Below are positions 1,858 to 6,198 of a DNA stretch of 16,236 bases, in pieces (the first letter of the stretch is position 1; each line of letters begins with the position of its first letter). Below the pieces are notes generated by a model that worked only from the letters and a program-made list of their open reading frames with translations, did no database searches and was not told the origin of the DNA. Origin of the DNA: an uncultured archaeon (GTDB taxonomy: Archaea > Asgardarchaeota > Lokiarchaeia > Sigyniarchaeales > SOKP01); NCBI GenBank assembly GCA_964508365.1, contig CAZDTP010000059.1:5254-21489 (forward strand). Direction: 5' to 3'. The translations under genes were made by a program, and so were the position numbers.

Positions 1858-2433
1858 CTACTTATAGTTCTCTTTAGACTTATAAACTAATTCTGCTATT
1901 TTCTGGAATACTACTTTTACATTTTCCCCAGTGAGAGCTGATGTCTCAAAATAGGGTGCATTTAATTTCTCACTCAGATGTTCAGCCATAGGTAAAATAA
2001 TTTTCCTTTCTTCTGCTAAATCTACCTTATTCCCGATTATGATTCTAGGTATTCCACTTAGTCCATACTTCACAGCTGCGCTATACCAGTTATTAACATT
2101 ACTAAATGTACTCGAGCGCGTAATATCAAATACTAGAAGCATTCCATCTGCCCCGTTGAAATATGGGCGATGAAGCATGTAGAATTGCGGTTGTCCTGCG
2201 ATATCCCAAAACATTAAATTAACTGTGGCATTCTGATCCTTCAGTTCGATTGGTTCCTTTAAAATACTTACTCCTACTGTTGGCAAATACTTCTCTTCAA
2301 ATTGATTTTTAGCAAATTTAGTAAGAAGGCTTGTTTTTCCAACAGCAGGATCTCCTATAACAATTACTTTATAAATTGCTTCAGTTCTCCCTTTGAAAAT
2401 TATTCCTCCTTCATTTCGTTCTTGATCGCTCAT
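1858..2433 (-). CDS. Rab-like small GTPase (Ras superfamily)
   Basis: G1 GDPAVGKT, G2 PTVG, G3 WDIAGQ, G4 NKVD, G5 ETSAL. RabF-like YFNGA and LVFDIT. No C-terminal cysteine. Ends with tandem TAG TAG. Confidence 0.93.
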   Translation of the reverse strand: MSDQERNEGGIIFKGRTEAIYKVIVIGDPAVGKTSLLTKFAKNQFEEKYLPTVGVSILKEPIELKDQNATVNLMFWDIAGQPQFYMLHRPYFNGADGMLLVFDITRSSTFSNVNNWYSAAVKYGLSGIPRIIIGNKVDLAEERKIILPMAEHLSEKLNAPYFETSALTGENVKVVFQKIAELVYKSKENYK

Positions 2434-2492
2434 ATGTTTTCTGATCGCTTTTGCTTTTAATTTTTTTTTATTATAATAAATATGAAGTTCTT

Positions 2493-2506
2493 CTATATAT
2501 TTCTTA
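2493..2506 (-). promoter_or_regulatory. Putative BRE-TATA promoter of the Rab-like gene
   Basis: Minus strand reads AAGAAATATATAGA (purine-rich BRE followed by TATA-like box) about 60 nt upstream of the ATG at 2433. Confidence 0.3.
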
Positions 2507-2647
2507 ACAATTTAATACCTTGATTTTAGCTTTAAGCTGGAAAAAGTTAAGTTCTAATGAAATTTTTTTTCAAATCAATAACACAGACAACTTTTTCAAA
2601 AATTCTTGAAATTCTCGAAAATATTAATAAGTTAAACTTAAACAGTT

Positions 2648-3277
2648 TTAATCTTTAAACATTAATTTATTAGTCCAAAATGTGATTTTCTCCATTAAAT
2701 GATTTTTAATTGTCTTTGAAGTTGTTTTTTGTTCATCCATCAAATCATTCAATGAATTAGCTGAATTTAATCGATTAATAACTTGTGAGATTTCATATAA
2801 AATTCTATGACCGCCCGTAAATTCAAAAATATTCTCTTTAATTTCCTCTAAAATTGGTTTGACGGTAAGGAAATCATCAAGCTCTTCTAAATTCTCTTTT
2901 AAACCATTTAGTTGGTTTAATATTAGATCTTTTTTGCTTGTTGCTGTTTCGTCCCTATCAACAGAATTTTTAACTTCTTTTTTTTTCGAAGAAGTTTGAC
3001 CCATATTTCTTAATAAAGATTTAATTAAATCCAATTCATCCTCTAAGACTTTCTGGTTTTCTATTACATTACTAAGTTGTGGGATCAAACTTTTTATATC
3101 GATTGTTGCTTTGTCCAAATCGTTAATTTTATCAATTAATTGGGTTATTTTGAGGTTAGTTTGTCCCATTTTTGTTATTATGTCTAAACCAAATTTTTCT
3201 AATATTGAAGAAAATAAATCCATCTTAGATTGGAACTCCTCAAATGACTTCGATAAATCTTCTATATTCTGATCCAT
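2648..3277 (-). CDS. Uncharacterised coiled-coil/helical protein (about 209 aa)
   Basis: N-terminal ~95 aa heptad-like region, a Ser/Lys-rich linker (SSKKKEVK), then a helical C-terminal domain. The ORF track starts at GTG 3286; ATG 3277 is preferred because GGTGG (SD-like) lies 5 nt upstream. Confidence 0.8.
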   Translation of the reverse strand: MDQNIEDLSKSFEEFQSKMDLFSSILEKFGLDIITKMGQTNLKITQLIDKINDLDKATIDIKSLIPQLSNVIENQKVLEDELDLIKSLLRNMGQTSSKKKEVKNSVDRDETATSKKDLILNQLNGLKENLEELDDFLTVKPILEEIKENIFEFTGGHRILYEISQVINRLNSANSLNDLMDEQKTTSKTIKNHLMEKITFWTNKLMFKD

Positions 3278-3459
3278 TGATTCCACCGTTGTTCCTTATA
3301 ATAATAACTTAATTAATTGTGAAAAGCAAAATTCTCCAGCAAAATTAGGGAGAATATTATATAAGATCAATTTTTTATTCTTTTTATAAATAAATAAATA
3401 TAGTATAAAAATTTAAATTCAAGTTTTTTAGGCATTTTAATTTACCTTTCTCAACTTCT

Positions 3460-4353
3460 GTGATAAGTGTGATTCAATATCTAAACATTTTAACTAAGGA
3501 CGGTAAGTCATTGCTATTCCGAAATTACGGGAGTTCAGATGTAGATAGAGATTTGTTAGCGGGATTTTTGAGCGCTTTTAGTGGATTTATGAAGGAAATC
3601 AGTCAAAGTGACATTAAATCGACTGCGACTGATGAATTTAAGTATTATTATACGATTATCGAAGCTATTATTATCGTTGTATGCACGGATTTAGAGGATG
3701 ATGATGCAATAATTAACTCTAAAATAACAACTATTAGGGTTAAGTTTATAGAAAAATTTGGAGAACTTCTTGCAAGCGGTAAATGGTCGGGGAATCGTGC
3801 GATTTTTACGAGTTTTGAAAAGGAAATCGATGACATCGTCTTAGGAGCTATTAAAGTATCAATCATAGGAACAGGAGGAGTCGGCAAAACATCCCTTTTA
3901 CACTTAATATGTGGCAAAGAAATCGATTTAGAATACATTCCAACTATAAATGTTGACATAGCTCCTTTTGACGGAGAAGAACTTGATGTTCCACGTTCAA
4001 TAGTACTTTGGGATTTTGCTGGGCAATCTAATTTTAGATCATTATGGAAAAGTTTACTAGATAGTACAGATATAGCGCTTATCGTCCTTGATTCAAGCTT
4101 TGAAAATGTTAATTACAGTAAAGATATAATTCGGGACATTTTAGATAAACACTATAGGGATGTCTTAGTAATAGGGATAGCAAACAAGCAAGATATGCCC
4201 AATCGATTAACACCCCAATTTTGCGAAAGAATTCTATCCGAAGCGGAAAGAGAACCGCCGATCAAAGTCCATGGAATGGTTGCGATTAATCCTGTATACC
4301 GCGAGAAAATTCTTGCAATTTTAAGAGAAGCAATAAATAAGATTTTCCATTAG
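3460..4353 (+). CDS. Longin-domain / Arf-like small GTPase fusion protein
   Basis: Residues ~1-128 have a longin/AP sigma-mu-like pattern (IQYLNILTKDGKSLLFRNY...LLAGFLSAFSGF...IIIVVCTD...FTSFEKEI). Residues ~130-297 form a GTPase: G1 GTGGVGKT, G2 PTIN, G3 WDFAGQ, Arf-like RSLW and ANKQD, divergent G5 VAIN. GTG start. Confidence 0.85.
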   Translation: MISVIQYLNILTKDGKSLLFRNYGSSDVDRDLLAGFLSAFSGFMKEISQSDIKSTATDEFKYYYTIIEAIIIVVCTDLEDDDAIINSKITTIRVKFIEKFGELLASGKWSGNRAIFTSFEKEIDDIVLGAIKVSIIGTGGVGKTSLLHLICGKEIDLEYIPTINVDIAPFDGEELDVPRSIVLWDFAGQSNFRSLWKSLLDSTDIALIVLDSSFENVNYSKDIIRDILDKHYRDVLVIGIANKQDMPNRLTPQFCERILSEAEREPPIKVHGMVAINPVYREKILAILREAINKIFH

Positions 4354-4440: not shown

Positions 4441-6198
4441 GTGATAAAATTGATTGAATTTGAGTTAGAGGAATTTTCCCTTATTGATCGTGGTAAGTAT
4501 AAAGTTTTAAGACTAGAGGAATTAACGGAAGATGAGAGGTATATTGTAGATCCAATTGTTGACCCAACATCAGGATTGCGAATTAAGATACTTGACAAGC
4601 TAGAAAGAGCAGGTTCTGAGAAATTGGTTTTAACTAAGAGAAAGCTTTTCCTATTTCTTCGTGTTTTTAAAGCTATAAGTCAAAAATTCAAAGCAATAAA
4701 GGATGGTAAGAATCTCAAGGTATTAATTGTCACAGATGACCGTCCAACTAAAAGTATTCTATTAGAATATTGTTCTCAAATATTTGCTTACGATGGCTAC
4801 GAAATATTTCATCAGAAAGACATTCCTGGAGAATCGAAGCTTTCTTCTCCGTATGGAGCAGCGTCAGTTGGATTAATTGAGGATATTAAATTAGTAATCG
4901 TATTAACTGCGTCTCATAATGAACTGTCTTGGAATGGTGTAAAGTTTTACATCGATTATCCAATGCCTATGTCGGGAGATTTATTCAAAGAAATTTCTAA
5001 CATAGCATTAAGTATTGAGGAAATAAATCTCGATCCCTTTTACAAGCCCATGAAAATCGATGCTGAACAGATTAATAACGATTACGTTATAAGTCTATTA
5101 AATGATGTTTTGGAGCTTAAAAGTTTAATAGGTTTAAAAATAGTTATATGGCCATATCTAGGAAAAGCCAGAGGAATTGTTGATTTATTTAAACGCTTAG
5201 GAGCAGATGTAGTGTTGATTAACGAAGAAATTAATCCTCCTAACCCTATACAAGAAGTTCGCGAGGATAAATTGAAACAAGTTATGGAAAAAGAAGCTTC
5301 AAATATTGCGATACTTTTAGACGCAGATCGAGATAGGATTGCATTGTATATAAGACAGAATGGAAAATATTGTTTTTACATTCCAAATGAGATCTATTCT
5401 GCCTTGCATAATATTTTGGCTAATGAGTATCATAAAAAGATTATCAATGTGAGGACTATTCCAAGCGATTTGAGAGGAGATGAGACGAGTTTTATAAATA
5501 TTTTGACTGGTGTAGGTTATAAACATTTAGGAATAATCCTATATTTTCTGTTAGGGATGGAAGTAGAACAGTCAAAAGTTGATAAAGCAATCCTCTATTT
5601 TGAAGACGAGAATAAAAATTTGGTGAAAATCAACAAGGCTGAACCATTAAAAGAAGAACTAACTGAACTTATTGAAAAAGAAAAAATACAGGATGAAAGT
5701 TTTTTAATAGTCATGTGGGAAGAATCGGGAGGACATACTCTCAATGTATTAAATCCTGCGAAAAAAGATAACTTGGGGCATTTCGTATTTGATTCTAAGT
5801 TTCCAATAATTGCGGATAAATATCCTGTACCAGCTTTAGTTTTAATAACAGAACTACTTGCAAGAGGGCATGAAATATCAAAATCAATTGATTGGTCGAT
5901 TAAAGGGATAAATCGAACAATACCTGCTATAGACGAGCAAAAGATTAAGATTATGAATAATTTTATGAAAAATGACAAGAATTTTATCACAATTAATGAA
6001 AAAGAGTATAAAGTGAGTGCTTTATCTGATAATGCAAATAATGTAGATATCTACCGCCTTAAAAGCGCCGATTCTACGCTATATTTTAGACCAAGTGGCA
6101 CAGGTCCAGAAGTAAGGTTTTATATTTTTGGTAAACGCGAAACCCACTTAGAAGAATTAAAAACAGTGCAAGATTATATAAAAATACAATATTCATAA
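4441..6198 (+). CDS. Alpha-D-phosphohexomutase (phosphoglucomutase/phosphomannomutase family)
   Basis: Catalytic-Ser loop TASHN, metal loop DADRD, sugar loop EESGG, phosphate loop FRPSGT. DPTSGLR corresponds to the FGTxGxR motif. GTG start. Confidence 0.88.
   Translation: MIKLIEFELEEFSLIDRGKYKVLRLEELTEDERYIVDPIVDPTSGLRIKILDKLERAGSEKLVLTKRKLFLFLRVFKAISQKFKAIKDGKNLKVLIVTDDRPTKSILLEYCSQIFAYDGYEIFHQKDIPGESKLSSPYGAASVGLIEDIKLVIVLTASHNELSWNGVKFYIDYPMPMSGDLFKEISNIALSIEEINLDPFYKPMKIDAEQINNDYVISLLNDVLELKSLIGLKIVIWPYLGKARGIVDLFKRLGADVVLINEEINPPNPIQEVREDKLKQVMEKEASNIAILLDADRDRIALYIRQNGKYCFYIPNEIYSALHNILANEYHKKIINVRTIPSDLRGDETSFINILTGVGYKHLGIILYFLLGMEVEQSKVDKAILYFEDENKNLVKINKAEPLKEELTELIEKEKIQDESFLIVMWEESGGHTLNVLNPAKKDNLGHFVFDSKFPIIADKYPVPALVLITELLARGHEISKSIDWSIKGINRTIPAIDEQKIKIMNNFMKNDKNFITINEKEYKVSALSDNANNVDIYRLKSADSTLYFRPSGTGPEVRFYIFGKRETHLEELKTVQDYIKIQYS

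Follow-up and report, generated by a model that had tools for sequence, protein, structure and literature searches.

The conserved unit at this locus appears to be a divergent pair of genes, encoding a helical protein (CC) and a fusion of a longin domain to an Arf-like GTPase (LonG), together with a phosphohexomutase-like gene directly downstream of LonG. In the reading that we favor, at a probability of roughly 0.55, CC is the dedicated partner of LonG and the nearby gene for a Rab-like GTPase (RabL) is a bystander. The DNA is from an uncultured Lokiarchaeia archaeon (Asgardarchaeota; assembly GCA_964508365.1, contig CAZDTP010000059.1), and the locus is located at positions 1858-4353 of the window, i.e. 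the whole stretch of 16,236 nucleotides that was analyzed. A sequence-only reading had proposed three adjacent genes here, and all three open reading frames were confirmed at their coordinates. RabL, CC, and LonG are conserved at the protein level in dozens of genomes and are, for this reason, above chance. The features are as follows:

1858-2433, minus strand: RabL, Rab-like small GTPase, 191 aa (Pfam Ras 1.7e-46; PDB matches; readable G motifs)
2434-2647, minus strand: AT-rich spacer of 214 bp between CC and RabL (read from the sequence)
2648-3277, minus strand: CC, helical protein of an unnamed family, 209 aa (ATG behind GGTGG)
3278-3459, no strand assigned: divergent spacer common to CC and LonG (between the divergent starts)
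3460-4353, plus strand: LonG, longin-Arf-like fusion, 297 aa (open reading frame; Pfam, fold, and PDB matches)
3460-3852, plus strand: longin domain of LonG, residues 1 to about 130-131 (predicted fold)
3850-4353, plus strand: Arf-like GTPase domain of LonG, residues about 131-297 (Pfam, PDB, fold, motifs)
4441-6198, plus strand: divergent alpha-D-phosphohexomutase-like protein, 585 aa (Pfam PGM_PMM_I and PGM_PMM_II above cut-offs)

In every one of the 47 reference genomes with both genes detected, CC and LonG were direct neighbors in divergent orientation; among the named Promethearchaeota loci with room for the pair, this held for 71 of 75. These counts come from mutually related genomes and hence from non-independent samples. 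Of the 47 genomes, 35 are members of the genus and 12 come from two further families of the order, with sequence identities there of ~53% for LonG and ~28% for CC. When co-occurrence was surveyed at the genome level in four families (f1 to f4, with 36, 13, 1, and 4 genomes), LonG was found in 35, 12, 1, and 0 genomes and CC in 34, 12, 1, and 0 genomes, respectively; neither was found in G027, in G051, or in any of the four genomes of f4, a sister family. The previously proposed clustering of the coiled-coil and longin-Arf genes is, accordingly, that of a strictly conserved divergent pair. At the order level the flanking genes differ from those in the window, and thus the trio of CC, LonG, and mutase stands out from the background synteny. 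The same data bear on the view that no functional module exists and that the three genes are unrelated, their arrangement reflecting neutral synteny or promoter/terminator overlap in a compact genome. We consider this unlikely: the trio was kept at the order level while all other window neighbors had moved away, the presence/absence patterns of CC and LonG match across families, and the divergent spacer harbors a block conserved in the genus. The view does gain from the relatedness of the genomes compared, from the published observation that Asgard eukaryote-like genes rarely occur in conserved neighborhoods, from the occurrence of the mutase in f4 without the other two genes, and from the fact that a shared pathway for CC, LonG, and the mutase cannot be named.

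The region between the two divergent starts, previously given as ~180 bp, has a length of 173 bp (3287-3459), or 191 bp with alternative starts. Alignment of 18 spacers revealed the genus-conserved block at approximately 3358-3410, reading roughly AAGATCAATTTTTTATTC and then TTTATAAATAAAT...ATAGTA. With promoter features judged by eye, this block probably represents back-to-back TATA/BRE promoters. Based on its co-occurrence with LonG and the shared promoter region, CC is most likely the dedicated partner of LonG, acting as an effector or regulator, although conserved gene order speaks to function only indirectly. Another coiled-coil protein, with a zinc ribbon, precedes the LonG' copy in G012 and the longin-GTPase-roadblock copy in G008, and these paralogous copies suggest a recurring pairing of a GTPase with a helical partner.

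CC had been described as an orphan coiled-coil protein. Its helical character was confirmed, with a heptad periodicity exceeding that of shuffled sequences in several segments, mostly in the N-terminal half. The orphan label has to be dropped, as 682 homologues were obtained at E<=1e-3, all of them unnamed and those from named sources belonging to Promethearchaeota/Lokiarchaeota. The 209-aa form starting at ATG is more likely than a 212-aa form starting at the alternative GTG at 3286 (2648-3286), since most homologues have 209 residues. Invariant positions in the 209-aa numbering are F29-G30-L31, I34, and G38 near the N-terminus and T154-G155-G156-H157 near the C-terminus, while the middle part is variable and of low complexity. 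No match that would assign CC to a family was obtained in Pfam, NCBIfam, or PDB, Pfam yielding only a sub-threshold match to SesA. A CC profile retrieved only generic coiled coils from PDB (E>=0.002; syntaxin-12 at 0.029), and the nearest ESM Atlas clusters were unnamed Promethearchaeota proteins. Weak profile matches in remoter genomes fell on C-terminal segments of proteins of 263-970 aa; since these lack the TGGH motif, they were treated as generic coiled-coil similarity and rejected.

The proposed fusion of a longin domain to an Arf-like GTPase was borne out for LonG, the longin part by predicted fold and the Arf-like part by Pfam, PDB, and fold matches. A possible alternative start, GTG at 3469, would yield a protein of 294 aa, which is the length of many homologues. 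As the match list for the whole model was filled by G-domain matches, the longin domain was folded and searched separately. In two AF2 models, DSSP assigned the order beta1-beta2-alpha1-beta3-beta4-beta5-alpha2-alpha3 that is typical of longin domains (strands 5-12 and 17-22, helix 30-44, strands 53-56, 60-67, and 70-77, helices 82-106 and 113-128). A roadblock domain, unlike a longin domain, begins with a helix. Solved longin domains matched the predicted N-terminal domain closely across its whole length. Among the longin sequence families considered (PF13774, PF19036, PF01217), residues 1-130 of LonG had no longin match of their own in Pfam even at E<=1; among 31 aligned relatives, 14 matched Fuz_longin_1, 10 matched Longin, and 5 matched Clat_adaptor_s.

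The G domain of LonG displays G1 (GTGGVGKTS), the switch I PT, G3 (WDFAGQ followed by FRSLW), and G4 (NKQD). In Pfam, Roc, Arf, and Ras all scored at ~1e-15; because these scores are nearly tied, 'Arf-like' is the limit of classification. The top PDB sequence match was Arf1 at ~1e-12, with the HMMER alignment pairing wdfagqsnfrslw with wdvggqdkirplw and ankqdmpn with ankqdlpn. The Arf-type columns, comprising G1-G4, WDxxGQ...RxLW, and NKQD, are conserved in 33 relatives. Foldseek was led by GerdArfR1 (8oum; TM 0.79-0.80 on the target) and Arf1, along with the Lov2-Rac1 fusion chains 2wkr, 2wkq, and 2wkp, in which both domains were aligned at an rmsd of 15-16 A; MglA and LAMTOR/MglB were among the weaker fold matches. 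Arf proteins are anchored to membranes by an N-terminal amphipathic helix that is usually myristoylated at Gly2. No such helix precedes the G domain of LonG, where the 130-residue longin domain comes before beta1 with alpha3 abutting it, and LonG is therefore Arf-like rather than a canonical Arf.

LonG would be a switch complete in itself, with the 'L-G' architecture already described for Asgard archaea. In the AF2 model (two-domain pTM 0.76), the helix at 113-128 and the strand at 131-136 form the junction, so that longin alpha3 would run through a two-residue linker into beta1 of the G domain at the position where eukaryotic Arfs have their amphipathic helix. Based on this predicted geometry, the longin platform and the nucleotide state of the G domain may be coupled in cis. 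By analogy with other longin/roadblock systems, the platform probably also mediates dimerization or partner binding.

Fusions of this kind are not new. Asgard L-G, G-R, and L-G-R architectures and their predicted dimers have been described (Tran et al. 2024, PMC10933270; PMC11914678), with the L-G fusions placed in a Rag-like/Arf-like class (Tran et al. 2024, PMC10933270); 'AArfs' carry an N-terminal longin (PMC11914678), and the preprint by Liu et al. 2020 also covers longin-GTPase fusions. LonG shares with the published fusions the N-terminal longin, the Arf/Rag-like G domain, and the lineage (Lokiarchaeia/Promethearchaeota), and the published L-G-roadblock form was seen in its close paralogues of 477-497 aa, which carry a C-terminal roadblock (PF03259). 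According to those papers, GTPases are rarely paired with partners in the genome layout; the LonG group, by contrast, has a strictly conserved divergent partner and a conserved downstream enzyme. No description of the trio was found in the publications consulted on Asgard longin-GTPase fusions. In the signal recognition particle receptor, the longin SRX of SR-alpha pairs with the Arf-like SR-beta, whereas LonG fuses both in one chain, lacks an SRP-type NG domain and a transmembrane anchor, has 12-18% sequence identity to SRX, and shows no SRP link at the locus. Unlike the AP/COPI systems, in which sigma/mu adaptin and zeta/delta-COP operate with Arf1, the locus contains no large adaptin or COP subunits. 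Compared to the tri-longin Rab GEFs (Mon1-Ccz1, Fuzzy-Inturned/CPLANE, HPS1-HPS4), LonG has one longin instead of three, and the adjacent Rab-like gene is not a conserved neighbor. As in Rag/Gtr and MglA-MglB, a small GTPase is tied to a platform of the roadblock/longin superfamily; LonG differs from Rag/Gtr in that the platform is an N-terminal longin, G4 reads NKQD as in Arf, and a C-terminal roadblock is absent, the chain stopping at residue 297 straight after the G domain. All parts of the locus are of known types; what lends it modest interest is that CC and LonG form a conserved pair.

The mutase gene has the same direction as LonG and starts 87 bp downstream of it, a gap that is compatible with an operon or with none. 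In 73 of 76 loci it was the next gene after LonG (gaps of 20-305 bp), and it was adjacent to LonG in all f2 and f3 loci, order and direction being kept across three families. The sequence-only reading had missed it, although it is the most consistently linked downstream gene. The protein is the fourth member of its family in the genome and highly divergent: its Arch_GlmM score of 74.8 bits is far below the cut-off of 439, no NCBIfam equivalog cut-off was reached, and phmmer returned no PDB match at 1e-3. The loops that define the superfamily (TASHN, DxDxDR, EESGG, RxSGT) are all present; in the form TASHN, DxDRDR, EESGG, and RPSGTG they were retained in 14 of 14 orthologues from four families, except that the residue after EESGG varies (H, or N in one). 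The mutase thus appears divergent but catalytically intact. It was present in f4, where neither LonG nor CC was found beside it, and given this occurrence its link to LonG may be positional.

These data were weighed against an account in which LonG is a Rag- or SR-beta-like switch with a metabolic output that controls, localizes, or is co-regulated with the mutase, CC serving as an adaptor. The output specified is the supply of sugar nucleotides or envelope glycans. We regard this account as quite improbable. It is in line with the order and direction of LonG and mutase, with the retention of all catalytic motifs in an extra, highly divergent paralogue, with the C-terminal roadblock that close LonG paralogues share with Rag GTPases, and with the published Rag-like/Arf-like view of these proteins. 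On the other side, the mutase occurs alone in f4, the adjacency may reflect insertion of CC and LonG upstream of an older gene, and no case is known to us in which a small GTPase regulates a phosphohexomutase. A related and rather doubtful proposal is that CC, LonG, and the mutase constitute a Lokiarchaeia-specific functional module. An Arf-like switch regulated in cis would, together with its dedicated helical partner, control the sugar-phosphate enzyme or be co-regulated with it. If true, an Asgard 'trafficking-type' GTPase would have a metabolic or envelope output, and this would be among the few Asgard small GTPases for which a specific partner can be derived from genome context.

RabL is indeed a Rab-like GTPase with all G motifs, as the sequence-only reading had it (GDPAVGKT, PTVG, WDIAGQ, GNKVD, and ETSAL in the translation). 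It has a Ras-family G domain with Rabs as nearest relatives: the best solved relative was the Thorarchaeota Rab 7ezb (9e-38), followed by Rab1A (5e-33), both aligned over the full length. In contrast to 7ezb and eukaryotic Rab1/Ypt1, RabL has an N-terminal extension of ~20 residues and lacks C-terminal cysteines for prenylation (geranylgeranylation); the translated tail, ...AELVYKSKENYK, is free of Cys and terminates in ...YKSKENYK. On the minus strand, the spacer between CC and RabL contains T5 runs and then a TATA-like run ~35-55 nt upstream of the RabL ATG, and RabL probably has its own promoter.

The sequence-only reading had further proposed a cascade with the Rab-like GTPase as target, the longin-Arf fusion as its GEF or regulator, and the coiled-coil protein as effector or tether. 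Among 54 genus-level loci with enough flank, RabL was located ~1.3-4.5 kb from LonG in 47, which is in favor of the cascade; retention was at the same background level as that of the housekeeping neighbors PUA (43/54) and LigT (41/54). Within the genus, RabL and CC occupy opposite strands in 42 loci and share a strand in 16, and a radical-SAM gene lies between the two in L020, the one such locus checked. As RabL is on the other strand in most relatives, co-transcription of CC and RabL cannot be general. The distance between the RabL and LonG orthologues amounted to 95, 278, and 430 kb in three complete sister-family genomes, and in a fourth the two were on separate contigs; identity was 52-58% compared to 39-43% for the next-best paralogues, and an actin gene adjoined the RabL orthologue in three of the four. 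Probable RabL orthologues (48-50% identity) also occurred in f4, the family that yielded neither LonG nor CC, which is weak evidence against the cascade. In MK-D1, GTPase genes are generally not in operons with longin/roadblock genes (Tran et al., PMC10933270). The synteny survey thus upheld CC and LonG as a conserved pair but not RabL as a member, and we consider the cascade very unlikely. For RabL, the survey gave the outcome that the sequence-only reading had itself named as speaking against its proposal, namely that the genes are not co-located in relatives. RabL is an independent gene and a genus-level neighbor of CC and LonG, not a conserved module member. The tandem-expanded locus of G012, with a Rab-like gene beside every LonG copy, counts against the bystander view and fits the proposed cascade. 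What backs the appealing 'Rab + Arf cascade' is synteny at the genus level only.

Small GTPases and longin/roadblock proteins number in the dozens in Asgard genomes, and gene order usually does not reveal their partners (PMC10933270). For one orthologue group, the locus described here departs from this rule, naming CC as a candidate partner and the mutase as a possible link. Should binding of CC to LonG prove to depend on the nucleotide, the pair would provide a minimal archaeal model of how a longin platform and an Arf-type switch were coupled before eukaryotes.

The window (C59:5254-21489) belongs to a parent assembly of 4.07 Mb with ~30% GC, and close homologues of its proteins were found in MAGs labelled Promethearchaeota, Promethearchaeia or Lokiarchaeota, which marks its source as an Asgard archaeon of the Lokiarchaeia type. 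The three adjacent ORFs recognized in the sequence-only reading were all present as described, and a fourth gene follows:

1858-2433, minus strand: RabL, Rab-like small GTPase (Pfam Ras 1.7e-46)
2648-3277, or to 3286 with a GTG start, minus strand: CC, helical/coiled-coil protein, an ORF without a family in Pfam, NCBIfam or PDB
3460-4353, plus strand: LonG, longin fold and Arf-like GTPase
4441-6198, plus strand: mutase, phosphohexomutase-like, 585 aa, next after LonG

The first 130 residues of LonG gave no direct match to any Pfam or NCBIfam model. AlphaFold2 models were obtained for the full-length protein (pLDDT 84.6, pTM 0.76) and for the N-terminal domain alone (pLDDT 80.4), and both displayed the longin order strand-strand-helix-strand-strand-strand-helix-helix. 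This order differs from that of a roadblock domain. The best Foldseek matches were the longin domains of COPI, AP sigma, VAMP7 and Sec22b, and among 31 aligned LonG family members Pfam identified Fuz_longin_1 in 14, Longin in 10, and Clat_adaptor_s in 5. The C-terminal half is Arf-like: Arf1 was its top PDB sequence match (~1e-12), with WDFAGQSNFRSLW paired with WDVGGQDKIRPLW and ANKQDMPN with ANKQDLPN, and the best fold matches of the G domain were the Asgard GerdArfR1 structure and Arf1. The longin and Arf-like domains suggested for this fusion were correctly called. Unlike Arf, LonG has no N-terminal amphipathic helix; in the model, longin helix alpha3 (113-128) abuts strand beta1 (131-136).

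Rag-family GTPases fused to longin domains have been described by Liu et al., and Tran et al. 2024 (PMC10933270) catalogued L-G, G-R and L-G-R architectures in MK-D1, termed those GTPases Rag-like/Arf-like, predicted dimers, and found the GTPase genes generally outside operons of longin/roadblock genes. Asgard Arfs with N-terminal longin domains were reported in a 2025 paper (PMC11914678). Because of these published fusions and the existing LonG relatives with a C-terminal roadblock domain, LonG is an already known kind of protein. Its longin domain is a multi-copy module that occurs in 173 representative clusters of a 1.8-billion-protein library. The window's genome contains about ten paralogues of it (on C18, C19, C5, C31, C114, C43, C65, C83 and C2; loci L002-L010), of which some are fusions with other domains. 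Among them are an 874-aa longin-GTPase-helical-repeat protein with an apparent nitrilase-like C-terminal end, a membrane protein of 701 aa whose longin domain is cytosolic, and a copy broken by a TAG codon (C2:41704-42129). LonG paralogues of 477-497 aa with an extra C-terminal Roadblock/LC7 domain have the L-G-R architecture (P0083, P0085, P0087, P0088). One L-G-R paralogue (L032:7074-9485, G008:C50) follows a co-directional gene for a coiled-coil protein of 293 aa that has a zinc ribbon and a homologous counterpart in genome G012; no CC, mutase or RabL is nearby. In G045, a genome of family f4 in which neither LonG nor CC was detected, the mutase orthologue is followed at a distance of 1.3 kb by a gene for a 258-aa protein (L062:9089-9865) whose N-terminus belongs to the same longin family.

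The best-supported unit comprises CC, LonG and the mutase gene, the tightest link being that between CC and LonG. LonG occurs as a single-copy orthologue in 35/36 genomes of the window's genus and, at ~53% identity, in two further families of the order (12/13 and 1/1 genomes); none was detected in the four f4 genomes. The CC profile detected 34/36, 12/13, 1/1 and 0/4 genomes of families f1 to f4, and LonG and CC were missing from the same genomes. By coordinates, CC is the immediate upstream neighbour of LonG, on the other strand, in 47/47 genomes in which both were detected, counts that overstate independence since the compared genomes are relatives of one another. Among 80 named Promethearchaeota loci, a sample overlapping that of the genomes, the two were divergent and adjacent in 71 and separated by insertions in two; the arrangement was missing with room for it in two, and five loci reached contig ends. 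Locus L065 (DATKTW010000043.1), 98-99% identical to this one, was deposited as 'Candidatus Nanopelagicaceae bacterium' and almost certainly represents a Promethearchaeota contig that was mis-binned or mislabelled.

That the trio has been maintained by neutral synteny without forming a functional module appears rather unlikely: the flanking genes on both sides differ at order level while the trio is kept, which makes it stand out from background synteny. The mutase gene is adjacent and co-directional after LonG in 73/76 loci, and likewise in all f2 and f3 loci. Its orthologues keep 4/4 catalytic loops of the superfamily; in the window's genome it is a highly divergent fourth paralogue of its family, and no PDB sequence match was obtained at 1e-3. 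Its position behind LonG would suit a metabolic output of LonG through the mutase; however, the gene also occurs in f4 without LonG or CC beside it, and we regard such an output as distinctly unlikely.

CC had been taken for an orphan, which did not hold, as 682 homologues were identified, every one unnamed. Because of the residues invariant in an alignment across two families (F29-G30-L31, I34, G38 and T154-G155-G156-H157, with a variable middle), CC shows itself, at the level of primary structure, to be more than a generic coiled coil. Heptad periodicity exceeded that of shuffles in several segments, mostly in the N-terminal half. The spacer from which CC and LonG diverge measured 173-191 bp, in agreement with the ~180 bp first noted. 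A genus-conserved block within it (window 3358-3410: AAGATCAATTTTTTATTC ... TTTATAAATAAAT ... ATAGTA) could, judged by eye, represent a pair of promoters or the target of a regulator. In genome G001 the CC orthologue (C97:29-552) is split and has in-frame stops (one TAG, two TAA), which may reflect a pseudogene or faulty assembly; the neighbouring LonG and mutase genes are intact.

RabL, predicted to be a Rab-like GTPase with complete G motifs, was confirmed as such, with every motif visible. Among solved structures the Thorarchaeota Rab 7ezb (9e-38) is the closest to RabL, followed by Rab1A, Sec4 and Ypt1; the RabL sequence contains no C-terminal cysteines. Within the genus, RabL usually lies 1.3-3.4 kb from LonG (4.5 kb in one locus); RabL and CC occupy opposite strands in 42 loci and share a strand in 16, the latter being the arrangement of the window. 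A radical-SAM/SPASM gene is situated between RabL and CC in L020, the one such locus checked. In the 54 loci whose upstream flank extended to 4.9 kb or more, RabL was retained in 47, and its neighbours LigT and PUA in 41 and 43. Outside the genus, RabL orthologues are clear (52-58% identity vs 39-43% for paralogues). In three complete genomes their distance to LonG is 95, 278 and 430 kb, and in a fourth genome the two are on separate contigs. Co-location of all three genes, as initially proposed, therefore stood for CC and LonG but not for RabL. In 3/4 of those genomes, all f2, RabL adjoins an actin-family gene (Pfam Actin 4.6e-83) opposite a 450-490-aa protein with a zinc ribbon at its end (L051:4789-6579 in G049, L052:5965-8003 in G044, L053:4651-6552 in G054). 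The window's genome does not share this grouping: its best actin match lies on C23, and the zinc-ribbon protein is encoded on C75. Two f4 genomes without LonG and CC have probable RabL orthologues (48-50% identity, weak evidence).

A Rab cascade of RabL, CC and LonG is favoured by a single point, a tandem expansion in G012 with the order RabL, CC, LonG, RabL', another coiled-coil protein, LonG', RabL'', then mutase. Given the distant RabL orthologues and the varying strand relative to CC, we consider this cascade highly improbable. The expansion spans L031:6475-14206 (C38); RabL' is convergent with a 27-nt gap, the second coiled-coil protein has 295 aa and a zinc ribbon, and LonG' shows 54% identity.

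A different coiled-coil protein, one carrying a zinc ribbon, is encoded ahead of paralogous LonG copies, in keeping with repeated pairing of GTPases and helical partners. Within the unit of CC, LonG and mutase, LonG would act as a putative cis-coupled longin/Arf-like switch, and CC is probably its dedicated partner.
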